The notes below the pieces were generated by a model. It saw only the letters and a program-made list of their open reading frames with translations, had not been told where the DNA came from and ran no database searches. Position numbers and translations under genes: made by a program. A DNA stretch of 36,019 bases. Source: a virus. Taxonomy: Duplodnaviria; Heunggongvirae; Uroviricota; Caudoviricetes. Positions 1,231 to 36,019 of this stretch are shown in pieces (position 1 is the stretch's first letter; each line of letters begins with the position of its first letter). The stretch is taken from the IMG/VR virus record IMGVR_UViG_2537561980_000006. One strand, written 5' to 3'.

Positions 1231-1814
1231 ACCTTAACTTAATGATTTTTACCAAAATCATTAGGGGATTCATCAGTGCGGTGCCTGGTGCCTCCAGGTG
1301 ACGTTAACCAGTTAACAATTAACGCCGGATACAGAGAATCCACCCATAACACTGTTTTTGGTTTTAACTGTTCCGCGTGCGCTTAGCCGCATTCACCGCA
1401 TCACAAAATTCACTTTAAAAAGGGCGGCAGAGCAGTCACGGAGTAAAACTGATACCGCCAAACGTCACCAGAAAATTGATAACAGAGGGCGTTGCAGCGG
1501 GGTTGTCACTTAAGCGTATGGTCAACCTGACAACCAGGTGTCCTCAACGGGGAAGGAATAACCCCGCCATACTTACCGCCGCGCCATTTCGCGGAGTGCC
1601 ACAACCGGAAGCGCACGGCCGACGAAAATTTAACGACAGGCTATCTATGAACCAGCTACCTCGCCGTGCGCTTTCGCGTTATGGTCTGACTTTTCATGGA
1701 AATATCCTTTCAGTAAACTGTCAGTGCCGGATGCTCACCCGTGTCCGGCGCACGCACTCCACCTCACCCGTGGAGAACTCCTTAATTACCAACCTTAGCT
1801 TCGTTGGTTAGCTA

Positions 1815-2033
1815 TTAACGCGGGTATGTAATCATTCTGGCAATGCTTAATGCCGCTGCTTTTTCCAGCCTGGTGATATCCTGCTCCAGAGCGGACAGAT
1901 TTTCAGCCTGCTTAGCCCTGGCTTCATTGGCCCATTTCAGATCCTGCGCTGCATTAATTTTCTGGCGCATCCACTCATAAAGTTCATCATCGGTATAATC
2001 TGGCGCGATGATGACGGGTTCTCGTTTCTGCAT
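1815..2033 (-). CDS. Hypothetical small early-left protein (72 aa)
   Basis: ORF with GAGGA RBS upstream of ATG at 2033; co-oriented with the repressor-side leftward operon. Confidence 0.5.
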   Translation of the reverse strand: MQKREPVIIAPDYTDDELYEWMRQKINAAQDLKWANEARAKQAENLSALEQDITRLEKAAALSIARMITYPR

Positions 2034-2062
2034 ACTGATTCCTCGCGGTGTTGCTTCGCTTA

Positions 2063-2191
2063 TCAGCCGTTAGATTTTGCCGAGCTGGAAAGCGCCTGTT
2101 TAAACTCACTGAAGCTGAGAGCTTCTTCGCCTTCGGCAAGGCCTTCGAAGTATTCTTCGTAAGCCTTTTCCATGATTGTGTCGAAATCCAT
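2063..2191 (-). CDS. Hypothetical small acidic protein (42 aa)
   Basis: ATG at 2191 preceded by AGGTGGGTGAT RBS; start overlaps the stop of the upstream gene. Confidence 0.4.
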   Translation of the reverse strand: MDFDTIMEKAYEEYFEGLAEGEEALSFSEFKQALSSSAKSNG

Positions 2192-2192
2192 A

Positions 2193-2348
2193 TCACCCAC
2201 CTGAATTTCTTTCCAGCCAGCGACGCGCTCCAGATTCGGTTTTAAACGTTTTGCTTTTGGTATACGTCATTGCGGTGAACGTACCGTCCTGGTTGGGGAA
2301 CACGCCACATACCAGAGATTCGCTGTTGCCAAGATTGATAGTATCCAT
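2193..2348 (-). CDS. Hypothetical small protein (51 aa; alternative start at 2429)
   Basis: ATG at 2348 preceded by TGAGGT RBS; ORF MDTINLGNSESLVCGVFPNQDG.. Confidence 0.45.
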   Translation of the reverse strand: MDTINLGNSESLVCGVFPNQDGTFTAMTYTKSKTFKTESGARRWLERNSGG

Positions 2349-2519
2349 GCTGACCTCATTTCCCCTTAACGCCGGGGTAGCGGAACAAAAACCTGCTGCA
2401 TAGTTATTAAAGTTGAACCCTGCCGTCATGTTCTTACGCCTCGGGCTGGCTACTTAACCCCTGACCACTGCCTGGTAACTCGAAGTATTGCCCTGCATTC
2501 TGTGGGGCGGGGTGGGTGG

Positions 2520-2575
2520 CAGGTATATAATGTACTTTGCGTTCATTGTTGTAAAGTACTTTTAGTACATTCTGT
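2520..2575. promoter_or_regulatory. Leftward operator/promoter region (OL-like) with ATGTACT / AGTACAT motifs
   Basis: ATGTACT at 2530-2536, AGTACT at 2555-2560, AGTACAT at 2564-2570; the same heptamer recurs on the other side of the repressor gene. Confidence 0.4.
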
Positions 2576-2645
2576 GTGTAAAAAAATGAGATGGGATAAA
2601 GTGAAGCACAAACCCGGAGGAAGGCGCTACCGGATTTATGCTGGT

Positions 2646-3065
2646 TTAAGAGGCTTTTTGTTTTTTCTTTCGTGCTAACTCTTCGTAAATTGCATTGTAC
2701 TTCTGTTTTTTCTCTTCAAGAGTTTTTAAAAGTTCATCTGTCTCACTGTCAGGGAGCTCGTCCAGAAGGTCAATGATGATTTTTTGTCTTGGATTTAACT
2801 CCTGATAGAAACGTACCTGTCCACTTTCTTCTGTATCCTCTCCCAAAAGATAGGTTGGTGTTGTTCCTATTAGTGTTGCTAATTCCCTTAATTTCTCCCG
2901 GCGAGGAATTGTTTCGCCATTAAACCATTTGCTAACCGCTTTTGGTGTTAATTTCATTCGACGGGCAATTTCTGCCTGCCTTCCATGTTGTTCATAACCA
3001 GCGTTTTCACAGGCTAGCGCAAGCCTACTGGCGAACTCTTTACGCGCTTTATCTTCATGAACCAT
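2646..3065 (-). CDS. Prophage repressor, HTH (XRE/RacR-like)
   Basis: 139-aa ORF with N-terminal HTH region (..GRQAEIARRMKLTPKAVSKWFNGE..), divergently arranged against a cro-like gene. Confidence 0.75.
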   Translation of the reverse strand: MVHEDKARKEFASRLALACENAGYEQHGRQAEIARRMKLTPKAVSKWFNGETIPRREKLRELATLIGTTPTYLLGEDTEESGQVRFYQELNPRQKIIIDLLDELPDSETDELLKTLEEKKQKYNAIYEELARKKKQKAS

Positions 3066-3070
3066 AAGTT

Positions 3071-3125
3071 CAATGATATTCGCTCTTGAATGTACTGTCA
3101 GTTCTGTTATAGCATGTACTCAAAG
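3071..3125. promoter_or_regulatory. Divergent promoter/operator region (OR-like)
   Basis: Inverted repeat TTCAA-N12-TTGAA at 3069-3090 and direct repeats of ATGTACT at 3090-3096 and 3114-3120, between the divergent repressor and cro-like genes. Confidence 0.45.
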
Positions 3126-3144
3126 TTCACATTATGAGGGTGAT

Positions 3145-3399
3145 ATGAACCAGAAAACACTTGAAGATGTAATCAAAACTGTTCGCGTTGCTGTTGTGGC
3201 CGACGTTTGTGGTGTCAGCCAAAGAGCAATCTATAAATGGATGGATAACGGAAAATTGCCTCGCACAGAATATACCGGCGAAACAAATTACGCTGAAAAA
3301 ATCGCTCTTGCATCAAACGGATTATTTTCTGCCGATGCAATTTTAACTATTGGCAGGAATAAAACTACTACGAAAAAGCTGATGGGAGTTGATTCATGA
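3145..3399 (+). CDS. Cro-like HTH regulator (YdaS-like)
   Basis: ATG at 3145 after GAGGG RBS; contains HTH-like VADVCGVSQRAIYKWMDNGKLP. Confidence 0.65.
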   Translation: MNQKTLEDVIKTVRVAVVADVCGVSQRAIYKWMDNGKLPRTEYTGETNYAEKIALASNGLFSADAILTIGRNKTTTKKLMGVDS

Positions 3400-3821
3400 A
3401 AATCAAGCATGAACACATCCGCATGGCGATGAATGCCTGGGCGCATCCGGACGGCGAAAAAGTACCGGCTGCGAAAATTACCAAAGCGTATTTCGAGCTG
3501 GGAATGACGTTCCCGGAACTGTATGACGACAGCCATCCGGAAGCCTTGGCTCGCAATACCCAGAAAATTTTCCGCTGGGTAGAGAAAGACACCCCTGATG
3601 CAGTTGAAAAAATTCAGGCGTTGTTACCAGCGATCGAAAAGGCAATGCCACCTTTGCTGGTGGCCAGAATGCGCAGCCACAGTTCAGCTTATTTTCGGGA
3701 GCTGGTGGAGACGCGGGAGCGATTGGTGAGAGACGCTGATGATTTTGTCGCAGTGGCAATCGCCGGTTTCAATCAGATGAACCGTGGTGGCCCGGCAGGA
3801 AATGCTGTGGCAGTACATTGA
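3396..3821 (+). CDS. CII-like regulator (YdaT-like)
   Basis: 141-aa ORF starting MKIKHEHI.., start overlaps the cro-like stop; position and N-terminus resemble Rac-type YdaT as I recall it. Confidence 0.55.
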   Translation: MKIKHEHIRMAMNAWAHPDGEKVPAAKITKAYFELGMTFPELYDDSHPEALARNTQKIFRWVEKDTPDAVEKIQALLPAIEKAMPPLLVARMRSHSSAYFRELVETRERLVRDADDFVAVAIAGFNQMNRGGPAGNAVAVH

Positions 3822-8825: not shown

Positions 8826-9085
8826 CTAATCGTTATGTCAATTAATTACAATAACGACTTATCATGGTGAGCAAAAACGGTTTGCGGGAAAAGGAGAGTT
8901 AAGTAGAATTGCTGCGGGTGCTTGAGGCTATCTGCCTCGGGCATGAACACCAAAAGGCAGATAGAGAAAAGCCCCAGTTAACATTACGCGTCCTGCAAGA
9001 CGCTTAACATTAATCTGAGGCCCAATCTATGTCTCACAAATGTAGGTTAGCCTCTTACGTGCCGAAAGGCAAGGAGAAGCAGGCT

Positions 9086-9241
9086 ATGAAGCAGCAAAAG
9101 GCGATGTTAATCGCCCTGATCGTCATCTGTTTAACCGTCATAGTGACGGTACTGGTAACGAGGAAAGACCTCTGCGAGGTACGAATCCGAACCGGCCAGA
9201 CGGAGGTCGCTGTCTTCACAGCTTACGAACCTGAGGAGTAA
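9086..9241 (+). CDS. Hok/Gef-family type I toxin (51 aa)
   Basis: MKQQKAMLIALIVICLTVIVTVLVTRKDLCEVRIRTGQTEVAVFTAYEPEE: single TM helix and the conserved Hok C-terminal region; in-frame upstream extension from 9029. Confidence 0.8.
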   Translation: MKQQKAMLIALIVICLTVIVTVLVTRKDLCEVRIRTGQTEVAVFTAYEPEE

Positions 9242-12655: not shown

Positions 12656-12731
12656 GGCCCTTTAGCTCAGTGGTGAGAGCGAGCGACTCATAATCGCCAG
12701 GTCGCTGGTTCAAATCCAGCAAGGGCCACCA
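12656..12731 (+). tRNA. tRNA with CAU anticodon (Ile2-lysidine type or Met)
   Basis: Cloverleaf folded by hand: acceptor GGCCCTT/AAGGGCC, loop CUCAUAA, T-loop TTCAAAT, 3' CCA; close to E. coli ileX-type sequence as I recall it. Confidence 0.8.
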
Positions 12732-12732
12732 G

Positions 12733-12809
12733 CCGCCACTAGCTCATCAGGAAAGAGCGTCAACCCTTTAAGTTGAGTGTGCGAGGTTCGAGTCCCCGGT
12801 GGCGGTCCA
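12733..12809 (+). tRNA. tRNA with UUU anticodon (Lys-like) and unusual C at position 33
   Basis: Acceptor CCGCCAC/GTGGCGG, anticodon stem TCAAC/GTTGA, loop CCTTTAA, T-loop TTCGAGT, 3' CCA. Confidence 0.6.
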
Positions 12810-12811
12810 GT

Positions 12812-12887
<76 letters not shown>

Positions 12888-12890
12888 TAT

Positions 12891-12965
<75 letters not shown>

Positions 12966-22647: not shown

Positions 22648-23093
22648 TGGATTTCAGTCTTGATTTTTCAGGTCTGGCGGATATTGCACGGGATCTGGAG
22701 ACGCTCAGCAGGGCAGAAAACAATAAGGTACTGCGCGATGCCACCCGTGCCGGTGCTGAAGTTATGCGGGATGCAGTTGTTGAACGTGCGCCGGAGCGAA
22801 CCGGGAAACTGAAGAAAAATGTGGTTGTTCTCACTCAGCGTTCAAAGCGTCGGGGGGAAATTATCTCGGGTGTCCACATTCGTGGACGGAACCTGCGAAC
22901 CGGAAACAGTGATAACAGCATGAAAGCCAGTGATCCCCGAAATGCGTTTTACTGGCGCTTTGTGGAGCTGGGAACGATAAACATGCCCGCGCATCCGTTC
23001 ATTCGCCCGGCTTTCGATACGACAGAGGAACTGGCAGCACAGATTGCCATACAGCGAATGAATCAGGCTATTGATGAGGTCTTAAGTAAATGA
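22644..23093 (+). CDS. Tail component (HK97 gp10-like)
   Basis: 149 aa, overlapping starts and stops with neighbours. Confidence 0.55.
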   Translation: MMDFSLDFSGLADIARDLETLSRAENNKVLRDATRAGAEVMRDAVVERAPERTGKLKKNVVVLTQRSKRRGEIISGVHIRGRNLRTGNSDNSMKASDPRNAFYWRFVELGTINMPAHPFIRPAFDTTEELAAQIAIQRMNQAIDEVLSK

Positions 23094-34671: not shown

Positions 34672-36019
34672 ATGGCAGTAAAAATTTCAGGTGTACTGAA
34701 AGACGGTGCAGGTAAACCGGTACAGAACTGCACAATCCAGCTGAAAGCAAAACGTAACAGCACCACGGTGGTGGTGAACACGGTGGCATCTGAAAATCCG
34801 GATGAAGCCGGGCGTTACAGCATGGACGTTGAGTACGGTCAGTACAGCGTTATTCTGTTGGTGGAAGGCTTCCCGCCATCGCATGCCGGGATCATCACCG
34901 TGTATGAAGACTCACAACCGGGTACGCTGAATGATTTTCTCGGTGCCATGACGGAGGATGATGCCCGTCCGGAGGCTCTGCGCCGTTTTGAACTGATGGT
35001 GGAAGAGGTGGCGCGTAACGCGTCCGTGGTGGCACAGAACACGGCAGCCGCGAAGAAGTCAGCCAGTGATGCCAGCACATCAGCCCGTGAGGCGGCAACC
35101 CATGCGACTGATGCTGCAGGCTCAGCACGCGCAGCCAGCACGTCAGCCGGACAGGCCGCGTCGTCGGCTCAGTCAGCGTCTTCCAGCGCAGGAACGGCAT
35201 CAACAAAGGCCAGTGAAGCATCGAAAAGTGCTGCTGCTGCAGAGTCCTCAAAAAGCGCGGCAGCTACCAGTGCCAGTGCCGCGAAAACGTCAGAAACGAA
35301 TGCGGCAGCGTCACAAAAATCTGCAGCCACTTCTGCATCCGCAGCGACCACAAAGGCGTCAGAAGCTGCCACCTCAGCCCGGGATGCGTCGGCCTCAAAA
35401 GAGGCAGCGAAATCATCAGAAACGAACGCATCATCAAGTGCCAGTAGTGCAGCTTCCTCGGCAACGGCGGCAGGAAATTCCGCGAAGGCCGCAAAAACGT
35501 CTGAGACGAATGCAGATAACAGCGCACAGGCGGCAGCAGACTCACAAACTGCATCAGCAAACTCCGCGACAGCAGCCAAAAAATCAGAAACCAACGCGAA
35601 AAATAGCGAGGCAGCAGCAAAGAGCAGCGAAACCAACGCTAAAGCCAGCGAAACTAATGCTAAATCCAGTGAAACAAACGCGGCGAAATCGGCAGCGGAC
35701 GCACTTAATTATCGCAACCAGGCGCAAGGGATTGTAGGCACCAGCATCGGCCTCGGGGCATCACCGCGTGATTGTCCTGATATTTCCGGCAACCCATCAG
35801 GGTATATCGGATTTATGCGCATTATGAGTAATGCAAAAGGCTTTCCATCGATTGCATCCGGTGAAAGCAGTCTTACGGGGTTTATTAGTCAGGTAGATGG
35901 AACACCAGCGTATACAGGTGTATTTCAGGGATGGGCTACGCGCTCGCTTTATACTTATCGCTGGAATCCGACAATAGGCCCGCAGTGGACGCGTCACGCA
36001 AGAAAAGATGAAGTGGACA
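34672..36019 (+). CDS. stf: Side tail fiber protein Stf, N-terminal part (runs off window end)
   Basis: MAVKISGVLKDG.GKPVQNCTIQLKA.RNSTTVVVNTV.. then Ala/Ser/Thr-rich repeats (KTSETNA..); no stop before window end. Confidence 0.8.
   Translation, partial: MAVKISGVLKDGAGKPVQNCTIQLKAKRNSTTVVVNTVASENPDEAGRYSMDVEYGQYSVILLVEGFPPSHAGIITVYEDSQPGTLNDFLGAMTEDDARPEALRRFELMVEEVARNASVVAQNTAAAKKSASDASTSAREAATHATDAAGSARAASTSAGQAASSAQSASSSAGTASTKASEASKSAAAAESSKSAAATSASAAKTSETNAAASQKSAATSASAATTKASEAATSARDASASKEAAKSSETNASSSASSAASSATAAGNSAKAAKTSETNADNSAQAAADSQTASANSATAAKKSETNAKNSEAAAKSSETNAKASETNAKSSETNAAKSAADALNYRNQAQGIVGTSIGLGASPRDCPDISGNPSGYIGFMRIMSNAKGFPSIASGESSLTGFISQVDGTPAYTGVFQGWATRSLYTYRWNPTIGPQWTRHARKDEVD

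Follow-up and report, generated by a model that had tools for sequence, protein, structure and literature searches.

A probable lambdoid prophage immunity switch with a short DicA-like repressor and five candidate operators of the HK022/933W type

Immunity in lambdoid prophages is described for several systems to which the locus studied here can be compared. The immunity region of phage HK022 comprises cI, cro, three right operators (OR1-3) and OL, in the layout outlined in PMC8053113, which cites Carlson & Little (1993), and its CI protein is 235 aa long and carries an S24 peptidase C-terminal domain. The 933W operator is a symmetric site of 15 bp, in which positions 2-5 of the half-site are conserved and position 1 is unimportant (PMC3317979); the 933W CI repressor is RecA-cleavable. 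In the Qin prophage of E. coli K-12, loss of the short repressor DicA derepresses dicBp, and dicBF is growth-inhibitory (PMC10448788; PMC3441716), while the prophage is induced in a bistable manner and without RecA, the antirepressor Rem being one possible trigger. Two further systems place a YdaT gene to the right of the repressor, namely PaaR2/YdaS/YdaT of CP-933P in E. coli O157:H7 (PMC8630535, PMC9986795) and RacR/YdaS/YdaT of Rac. The CP-933P YdaT is reported to be non-toxic and to act as a CII analogue, and the authors argue that YdaS/YdaT is not a toxin-antitoxin pair (PMC8630535), whereas the Rac YdaT is reported to be toxic upon expression (PMC11879457). Here we describe a locus in a 36,019-nucleotide stretch of caudovirus DNA (IMGVR_UViG_2537561980_000006; hereafter the window). 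Positions 2527-3129 very probably constitute a lambdoid prophage immunity switch, in which a 139-aa repressor would act on five candidate operators of the HK022/933W type.

A sequence-only reading of this DNA had pointed out a heptamer, ATGTACT, on either side of a leftward repressor gene, and had taken the copies for candidate OL and OR operators. The repeats are all present where it placed them, at 2530-2536 (+), 2564-2570 (-), 3090-3096 (+) and 3114-3120 (+), together with AGTACT at 2555-2560, and they flank the gene at 2646-3065. The window holds eight copies of the heptamer or its complement against 2.5 expected from shuffling, four of them inside 591 bp, where 0.04 would be expected (Poisson P ~1e-7). 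Each of these four clustered copies is one half of a 15-bp pseudo-palindrome, TGWACT-N3-AGTWCA. The operator definition, taken from PMC3317979 and the annotation of phage 24B (GenBank HM208303), was G-(A/T)-A-C-(T) at half-site positions 2-6. With at most one mismatch, the pattern GWACTNNNAGTWC occurs seven times in the 36 kb against 1.9 expected, a count that none of 100 shuffles attained, and five of the seven matches fall within 600 bp, at 2532-3128 (cluster P ~3e-10). These are the five 15-bp sites OL1, OL2, OR3, OR2 and OR1, each fitting the pattern with zero or one mismatch; the site at 3058-3072 (TGAACCATAAGTTCA) had been overlooked before.

The assignment of these sites as operators is supported by their site-for-site homology to those of HK022 and 933W/24B. 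On the left, OL1 (2531-2545, TGTACTTTGCGTTCA) matches the pattern, lies in the spacer of the predicted promoter PL and is homologous to the HK022 OL site TGAACTTTAAGTACA, and OL2 (2555-2569, AGTACTTTTAGTACA), an exact match adjoining the PL -35, is homologous to HK022 TGTACTATTGGTACT; the two are spaced 24 bp centre-to-centre. On the right, three sites lie between the divergent repressor and cro genes, at offsets of -64, -40 and -7 from the repressor ATG. OR1 (3115-3129, TGTACTCAAAGTTCA), an exact match just 3' of the PR -10, is homologous to OR1 of HK022 and 24B. OR2 (3091-3105, TGTACTGTCAGTTCT), also exact, is situated in the PR spacer, where it takes in the PRM -35, and has its homologues in OR2 of HK022, Klebsiella phage 2b (Kp2b) and 24B. 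OR3 (3058-3072), with one mismatch, overlaps the repressor start codon (3063-3065); its sequence equals that of HK022 OR1/OR3, TGAACTTATGGTTCA, and its location is that of the annotated 24B OR3. The operators annotated in 24B/933W read CGTACTGAAAGTACG for OR1 and TGAACCATGAGTACG for OR3. For HK022, the identities of the operators come from our scan of AF069308 together with the layout in PMC8053113, and the sites so found (OL, OR, OL3 and the far-right operator) agree with that layout. The window thus shares with HK022 the 15-bp operator type, the OR geometry and the homologous OL pair, but a counterpart of HK022 OL3, or of the HK022 operator some 300 bp to the right of OR, was not found. With 933W/24B it shares symmetric 15-bp operators with G-(A/T)-A-C-T half-sites, three in OR and two in OL, whereas half-site position 1, the unimportant one, is C in 933W and T or A in the window. 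A terminator-like hairpin on the plus strand at 2532-2559 was also considered, and was rejected as a terminator: it arises from the pairing of two OL half-sites, on a strand with no gene upstream.

Predicted promoters overlap these sites, and their hexamers are kept in relatives. A promoter scan places PL on the minus strand at 2527-2555 (-35 TTTACA at 2555-2550, 17-nt spacer, -10 CATTAT at 2532-2527); its hexamers are retained in phage Tritos, in the relative L095 (89%), in the Salmonella loci L092 and L093 and in HK022, while the flanks vary. The same scan predicts a maintenance promoter, PRM, on the minus strand at 3073-3101, with a 10/12 match (-35 CTGACA at 3101-3096, within OR2; 17-nt spacer; -10 TATCAT at 3078-3073). 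Because the repressor ATG follows the predicted -10 by only 7 nt, the repressor mRNA would be leaderless, and no Shine-Dalgarno sequence is visible. This layout is that of the annotated pRM and transcription start of 24B, where OR3 likewise covers the start of a leaderless cI and the PRM -35 lies inside OR2; in HK022, whose cI is leaderless as well, the PM -10 is marked just 5' of the cI ATG. The rightward promoter PR would occupy 3086-3113 on the plus strand (-35 TTGAAT at 3086-3091, 16-nt spacer, TG-extended -10 TATAGC at 3108-3113), and aligns with TTGACT/ATAATA of HK022, TTGCGT/TATAAT of the relative L097 and the annotated pR of 24B. In the generic scan PR fell below threshold, its -10 being weak, and because the scan missed it we propose PR from this homology. 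Directly after the repressor stop codon, on the minus strand, an RNA hairpin at 2605-2642 (MFE -19.2 kcal/mol, z -4.7) may be a terminator or a stabiliser; in L095 its stem is retained and its loop differs.

The repressor itself (2646-3065, minus strand, 139 aa) consists of an N-terminal XRE-HTH domain (Pfam HTH_3), a linker and a two-helix C-terminal domain. The N-terminal domain is 58% identical to that of HK022 CI, 51% to 24B/933W CI and 72% to the CI of Klebsiella phage 2b, and in every close relative the recognition helix TPKAVSKWFNGE is unchanged; it is one residue off that of HK022. The residues K42, K46 and E51, which make contacts in 933W, are present, but the contact residue S41 of 933W is replaced by P41 both in HK022 and in the window repressor, whose fine specificity is thus tentative. 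In place of the S24 peptidase domain of HK022 CI, the window repressor carries a DicA-like helical domain of 55 aa; on its own this domain matches the DicA model NF007257 with E 3e-7, and no Pfam match to Peptidase_S24 was found in the 139-aa protein. Relatives that do bear an S24 domain resemble it in the N-terminal domain only. The repressor is therefore, as judged from its sequence, CI-like of the HK022/933W kind in its N-terminal half, DicA-like in its C-terminal half, and presumably non-cleavable, unlike 933W CI. A structure search with an AF2 model returned only generic XRE-HTH matches (best E 1.7e-3) and did not inform the C-terminal domain. Phage Tritos, on which our literature search found nothing, encodes the same protein (100% identity), annotated there as 'CI repressor'.

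Leftward of the switch, PL is predicted to drive ydfA-ydfB-ydfC-dicF. This operon (1422-2348, minus strand) contains ydfA (2193-2348), ydfB (2063-2191), ydfC (1815-2033) and the DicF sRNA (1422-1473), as identified by DUF1391 in ydfA, by the RefSeq annotation of an identical locus (L001) and by the Rfam DicF model (76.7 bits). It lies directly downstream of the PL that the repressor would control; an IS10 end at 1276 truncates it 29 bp short of dicB, which is thereby parted from PL and lies beyond the element. HK022, in contrast, has nun and cII as flanking genes where the window has ydfABC-dicF and ydaT. It is possible, though we consider it considerably less likely than not to be the whole account, that the locus is best seen as a domesticated module of the Qin/DicA type, whose main role for the host is to silence the cell-division inhibitors DicF and DicB, loss of the repressor then doing harm through the leftward operon; such a role would complement rather than exclude the immunity switch. 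The length of the repressor and its homologous C-terminal domain are DicA-like, the genes ydfA-ydfB-ydfC-DicF(-dicB) lie under PL as in Qin, and the known consequences of DicA loss for dicBp and for growth fit. Yet the full-length repressor reaches only 56.8 bits with NF007257 (E 2e-15), below the cut-off of 101, and is 28.6% identical to K-12 DicA; its DNA-binding domain and its operators are not those of DicA, and the DicA operator Oc, TTGTTAGTCATAACTAACAA, is absent from the switch even at five mismatches. The window Cro is unrelated to DicC, with no blastp match between them, dicB is separated from PL by IS10 in the window, and the element is no obvious remnant: the 46-kb genome of phage Tritos has the module too, as does a prophage whose set of structural genes is full. 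The immunity switch remains, in our view, the better description, and should repressor loss prove harmful, the division inhibitors DicF and DicB of the leftward operon are better candidates for the cause than YdaS and YdaT.

To the right of the switch, cro (3145-3399, plus strand, 84 aa) is preceded by a GAGGG Shine-Dalgarno sequence and starts as in RefSeq. Its product is of the HK022/933W Cro type, with 60% identity to HK022 Cro and 47% to 24B Cro (E 1e-23). An alternative, the 108-aa ORF from 3073 that the Tritos annotation calls Cro, was rejected in favour of the start at 3145, which is 3' of PR, follows the Shine-Dalgarno sequence and agrees with the N-terminus of HK022 Cro. At the junction of cro and ydaT is an exact TTGATTN6AATCAA, the candidate YdaT operator OM (3389-3406, TTGATTCATGAAAATCAA), which is the single match in the window and shows no variation in 81 loci; the site footprinted by YdaT in CP-933P has the same sequence and location (PMC9986795). 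The ydaT gene (3396-3821, plus strand) encodes 141 aa, matches PF06254 (E 7.4e-10, 39.6 bits, cut-off 21) and PHROG 163, 'CII-like activator', and would thus specify a CII-like protein that activates the establishment of lysogeny. The identity of YdaT to the CP-933P protein (PDB 8BT1) is 90% and to Rac YdaT 33%, and it is near-identical to 3C4R. In RefSeq, the genes of the module are labelled merely as "helix-turn-helix" proteins and a "toxin YdaT family protein".

These data bear on the proposal, made in the sequence-only reading, that the locus has a Rac-type arrangement and may double as an addiction module, its repressor restraining YdaS and YdaT proteins that are toxic once derepressed. 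What holds of it is the gene order, with a repressor followed by a cro-like HTH gene and ydaT, and the genuine membership of YdaT in its family (PF06254); the leader 3' of PL (2440-2513) is, moreover, homologous to DNA downstream of racR, and toxicity of Rac YdaT has been reported, as noted above. However, repressor, Cro and operators are all of another type. In blastp the repressor resembles RacR over no more than 33 aa of the HTH, the RacR model NCBIfam NF049929 gives it 13 bits against a cut-off of 200 (E 0.074), and none of the RacR, DicA or PaaR2 operator motifs, including the GCCTAAT repeats of RacR, occurs in the switch. The gene taken for ydaS encodes the HK022 Cro homologue, and its product has no YdaS Pfam match and only an 18-aa alignment with K-12 YdaS (E 0.075). 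Because YdaT is 90% identical to the non-toxic CII analogue of CP-933P (PMC8630535), against 33% to that of Rac, an addiction module built on YdaS/YdaT is largely unsupported, and we regard the Rac-type explanation as very unlikely. The nearer parallel is CP-933P, which has the same CI/Cro/CII-analogue logic, an exact OM in the same place and a short leaderless repressor without a peptidase domain. The window is set apart from it by repeats and layout: the PaaR2 repeats (GTTTAGTAA) are absent from 2430-3145, Cro does not, in the comparisons made, belong to the YdaS type of CP-933P, and there is no toxin-antitoxin cassette (paaA2-parE2) after the repressor, nor any ORF between its stop codon and OL, whereas Salmonella relatives have higBA in that slot.

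The immunity switch is further supported by how its operators have been conserved, both in position and in half-site cores. A repressor scan of genome contigs returned one locus, identical to this one, and a scan of viral contigs only copies 99-100% identical, so near-identical copies served for polymorphism and not for deep covariation, and diverged relatives were obtained by protein search and contig look-ups. The OR offsets of -64, -40 and -7 recur unchanged in relatives whose full-length repressors are 89%, 65% and 62% identical to this one and in one with 72% in the N-terminal domain; one relative with conserved OR offsets has an S24 C-terminal domain, and the Salmonella relatives retain the OL pair past the inserted higBA cassette. 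Among 54 haplotypes, variation is seen in one of the 36 columns that make up the GWAC cores and in 25 of the 104 remaining non-coding columns (Fisher p 0.002, with related, non-independent sequences counted), and operator variation falls mostly in the central triplet. OL1 is polymorphic only at position 6' and in the central triplet, and the central triplet of OL2 takes at least eight forms while its GTAC cores are retained; in 81 loci, OR3 and OR2 show no variation, and the sole recurrent polymorphism of OR1 is at central position 3121. That the repeats are a matter of chance, or a non-binding by-product of an ancient duplication that copied PL from PR, is most improbable: eight heptamer copies were attained in one of 100 whole-window shuffles and an in-register alignment of PL with PR extends over ~50 bp, but the clustering is far above chance expectation, the duplicated segment does not include the third OR site, central triplets and spacers drift while the cores of the half-sites are kept, and sites of the same type are footprinted operators in 933W.

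As to how the switch would work, we infer binding itself, the promoter start points, the order of occupancy, the oligomeric state and the route of induction from these comparisons. The repressor, presumably a dimer, would bind the five pseudo-palindromes. At OR1 and OR2 it would cover PR, and hence control cro, ydaT and the replication genes; occupancy of OR2, within which the -35 of the repressor's own PRM lies, may either activate or repress that promoter. At OR3 it would cover its start codon and leaderless transcription start, permitting autoregulation. OL1 and OL2 would give it control of PL, and thereby of ydfABC, DicF and, in intact relatives, DicB. Cro is expected to act at the same sites and to shut off PRM, and the switch is therefore proposed to be bistable. 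YdaT may bind OM in the manner of CII and activate a leftward establishment promoter for the repressor; a PRE-like promoter near OM was not found by the generic scan. Because the DicA-like helical domain replaces a LexA-type peptidase domain, induction would be independent of RecA cleavage, and would proceed through spontaneous flipping or an antirepressor, as described for DicA, for which Qin offers the working model. A tblastn search with Qin Rem gave nothing significant, so that, unlike Qin, the window has no recognised Rem homologue. The LexA box CTGTN8ACAG has no match in the window, and there is therefore no evidence for an SOS-controlled antirepressor. In other respects the switch is a standard lambdoid one in a common E. 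coli prophage, the switch core being present in 1047 of 5426 complete E. coli genomes, nearly always once per genome.

For this widespread module, the analysis supplies an operator set, a promoter layout and a likely HK022-like specificity, and it corrects the toxin or Rac-type reading. One DNA-binding domain and operator set are common to SOS-cleavable repressors with an S24 C-terminal domain and to short DicA-like ones, which amounts to a clear instance of module exchange among phage repressors. The near-HK022 recognition helix, the fit of the operators to the measured specificity of the repressor of 933W, a Shiga-toxin phage, the presumably non-cleavable nature of the window repressor and its occurrence in about one fifth of complete E. 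coli genomes lead us to suggest, as a speculation with rather low odds, that the repressor could act in trans on incoming or co-resident phages of HK022 immunity, and possibly of the 933W type. This gives a testable prediction of cross-immunity, towards HK022 and perhaps also towards Stx phages of the 933W type. If it is true, the prophage would confer SOS-resistant cross-immunity or dampen the induction of Stx prophages, and toxin-converting phages would be linked to a Qin-like prophage by cross-talk of their repressors.

The heptamer ATGTACT or its complement recurs at 2530, 2564, 3090 and 3114, with AGTACT at 2555, exactly as in the sequence-only reading, which had proposed these repeats as candidate OL and OR operators. 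The window holds eight ATGTACT copies against 2.5 expected, and four of them lie within 591 bp, where 0.04 would be expected (P ~1e-7). Repeat analysis placed every clustered heptamer in a unit of about 15 bp, spaced by 24 bp in both clusters and forming the pseudo-palindrome TGWACT-N3-AGTWCA. Allowing at most one mismatch, the pattern GWACTNNNAGTWC has seven matches in the window against 1.9 expected, a number attained in none of 100 shuffles, and five of the seven fall within 2532-3128. These five putative operators are designated OL1 (2531-2545), OL2 (2555-2569), OR3 (3058-3072), OR2 (3091-3105) and OR1 (3115-3129); OR3 (TGAACCATAAGTTCA), which extends over the start codon of the repressor, had been overlooked. 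Two further one-mismatch matches lie outside the switch, at 23028-23040 (GAACTGGCAGCAC) and 34833-34845 (GTACGGTCAGTAC), and are probably not functional, since their number equals the chance expectation.

Judged from alignments, the DNA-binding domain, the operators, the arrangement of promoters and Cro are all homologous to their counterparts in the HK022/933W immunity region, and the switch would work in the same way. The repressor gene (2646-3065, leftward) encodes a 139-aa protein of the XRE-type helix-turn-helix (HTH) class, which in tblastn searches of phage genomes matched the product annotated as "CI repressor" in phage Tritos at 100% identity, and whose N-terminal domain was 72% identical to the Klebsiella phage 2b repressor, 58% to HK022 CI and 51% to 933W/24B CI. 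The 933W repressor site is described as symmetric and 15 bp long, with positions 2-5 conserved, position 3 accepting T or A, and position 1 unimportant, and the repressor contacts it through S41, K42, K46 and E51 (PMC3317979). The window half-sites, (T/A)G(T/A)AC(T/C/G), are consistent with this description; K42, K46 and E51 are retained, and residue 41 is P41, as in HK022. When the DNA between cro and cI is aligned for the window, Kp2b, HK022, 24B and SI8, the three OR sites correspond one-to-one. The 24B GenBank record annotates OR1 (CGTACTGAAAGTACG), OR2 and OR3 (TGAACCATGAGTACG), the last over the leaderless cI start, and OR3 of the window reproduces the HK022 OR1/OR3 sequence exactly. The OL region can likewise be aligned to HK022 OL, sharing an operator pair 24 bp apart and TTTACA and CATYAT hexamers. 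Our HK022 site list agrees with the published layout (PMC8053113), in which OL3 lies some 53 bp from OL2 and a further operator some 300 bp to the right of OR. Operator motifs of DicA, PaaR2 and RacR were not found in the switch.

The predicted promoters follow the same plan. On the minus strand, the predicted PRM has its -35 hexamer CTGACA inside OR2 and, after 17 nt, the -10 hexamer TATCAT, only 7 nt from the ATG at 3065, which implies a leaderless repressor mRNA, as annotated for 24B and marked for HK022. The predicted PL (2555-2527; TTTACA, 17 nt, CATTAT) contains OL1 within its spacer and abuts OL2 at its -35, and its hexamers are conserved in relatives. PR, placed by alignment only, would comprise TTGAAT (3086-3091), 16 nt and a TG-extended TATAGC (3108-3113); its spacer would hold OR2, and OR1 would follow closely downstream.

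Conservation argues in the same direction. A protein search yielded three short-form relatives, identical to the window repressor over its full length at 89% (L095), 65% and 62% (L092 and L093, both Salmonella), and one S24-bearing form (L097) that is 72% identical in the N-terminal domain. In all four, the three OR sites keep precise offsets of -64, -40 and -7 relative to the repressor ATG, their half-sites retained and their central bases freely variable; the recognition helix TPKAVSKWFNGE is the same in every close relative, whichever of the two architectures it has. Across 81 loci that are nearly identical (54 haplotypes), no variation occurs in OR2, OR3 or the YdaT site, and OL2 shows at least eight variants of its central triplet with GTAC cores intact. 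Variable columns number 1/36 in GWAC cores versus 25/104 elsewhere in non-coding DNA (Fisher p 0.002; 54 haplotypes), which supports the operator case, although the sequences are related and the comparison is therefore no strict test. The family-conserved N-terminus MV(H/Q) is encoded by ATGGTTCA at 3063-3072, the inner half of OR3, so that coding sequence and operator are mutually constrained. Both Salmonella relatives have a HigB/HTH (higBA-like) toxin-antitoxin cassette inserted after the repressor gene (L092 2553-3220, L093 2588-3255), and the OL pair lies beyond it, where the DUF1391 operon has its promoter. As paaA2-parE2 occupies the same slot in CP-933P, the interval between repressor and OL has apparently received such cassettes repeatedly.

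The repressor departs from the HK022/933W family in its C-terminal part, where that family carries an S24 autocleavage domain; a domain search found no S24 peptidase domain in it, and relatives sharing only the N-terminal domain do carry one. Here the likeness is to Qin, which extends to the repressor C-terminal domain and the PL operon. Residues 80-139 alone match the DicA model (E 3e-7, positions 83-132 of 135), and the full repressor is 28.6% identical to K-12 DicA. In the AlphaFold model (pLDDT 82.5), an HTH domain of five helices is joined through a disordered linker (77-86) to a pair of C-terminal helices (92-103 and 106-138); a fold search with this model retrieved only generic HTH repressors. 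DicA is RecA-independent, is derepressed by the Rem antirepressor, heat or urea, and governs a switch that flips spontaneously in a DicC-dependent manner (PMC10448788). By analogy, induction of the window switch would take a DicA-like, non-SOS route; neither a LexA box nor a Rem homologue was found in the window.

The leftward operon beyond the repressor comprises ydfA (DUF1391), ydfB, ydfC and the DicF sRNA (1422-1473, Rfam 76.7 bits), and the left arm is therefore Qin-like rather than Rac-like. An IS10/ISVsa5-like sequence (1-1276) ends in the terminal repeat ...GGGGATTCATCAG and carries RNA-OUT at 1162-1231. It looks internally rearranged near 900-930, because the N-terminal part of its transposase reads from the minus strand (870-1169) and the middle and C-terminal segments read from the plus strand (15-901). 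In plasmids, most matches to it are split into two pieces, and a few Klebsiella plasmids show the same arrangement in one. By comparison with an uninterrupted relative, its end (junction 1276/1277) falls 29 bp before the start codon of dicB, leaving DicF attached to PL and dicB cut off; escape from DicB toxicity may have been selected here. Immediately past the stop codon of the repressor gene, a stable minus-strand hairpin (2605-2642; -19.2 kcal/mol, z -4.7) retains its stem, with a different loop, in the 89% relative; its T-run starts only about 25 nt later, so it is no canonical terminator.

Rightward, the likeness to CP-933P concerns YdaT and its operator. The 141-aa YdaT-family protein (3396-3821) shares 90% identity with CP-933P YdaT, known from crystal structure 8BT1, and differs little from 3C4R, and TTGATTN6AATCAA, the DNase-footprinted YdaT site at the CP-933P cro/ydaT junction (PMC9986795), occurs exactly once in the window, at the same junction (3389-3406). 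A replisome organiser and further early genes follow. The 84-aa HTH protein (3145-3399, rightward), earlier likened to YdaS, has no notable similarity to YdaS and none to DicC, and shares 60% identity with the Cro of HK022 and 47% with that of 24B. In Tritos (2245-2993), YdaT is labelled a 'Rha family regulator' and Cro is started at an upstream ATG (108 aa); given the homology to 8BT1 and HK022 Cro, both appear to be mis-annotations. The proposed Rac-type YdaT holds as to family, but identity to Rac YdaT is only 33%, against 90% to the CP-933P protein, which reportedly lacks toxicity and reportedly activates a PRE-like promoter; the authors of that study argue against YdaS/YdaT being a toxin-antitoxin system (PMC8630535). 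Rac YdaT is toxic through rcsA (PMC11879457). Likeness to Rac is confined to the order of the genes and to leader DNA: PL is followed by a G-rich leader (2440-2513, …GGGGCGGGGTGGGTGG…) that is homologous to DNA downstream of racR in K-12 Rac, and the similarity ends exactly where the immunity-specific operators start, a sharp mosaic boundary.

Elsewhere in the window, a sok antisense RNA (8916-9091, Rfam 120 bits) adjoins a hokD-like ORF, together a type I toxin-antitoxin locus of the early region, and four tRNA genes (12656-12965; CAT 'Met', Lys-TTT, Thr-TGT and Gly-TCC) lie downstream of the Q antiterminator region, the CAT gene being named Ile by RefSeq in a relative.

The locus matches, at 100% identity, a prophage adjoining tRNA-Ser/mtfA in strains that include E. 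coli CV839-06, and the module is present in 1047 of 5426 complete E. coli genomes, nearly always as one copy, as well as in the complete phage genome of Tritos. On a further, rather unlikely reading, the repressor would act in trans and make its host cross-immune, in an SOS-resistant way, to phages of the HK022 type and perhaps to Stx phages of the 933W type. A modest twist on a known switch is that a DNA-binding domain of the HK022 type here carries a DicA-type tail.
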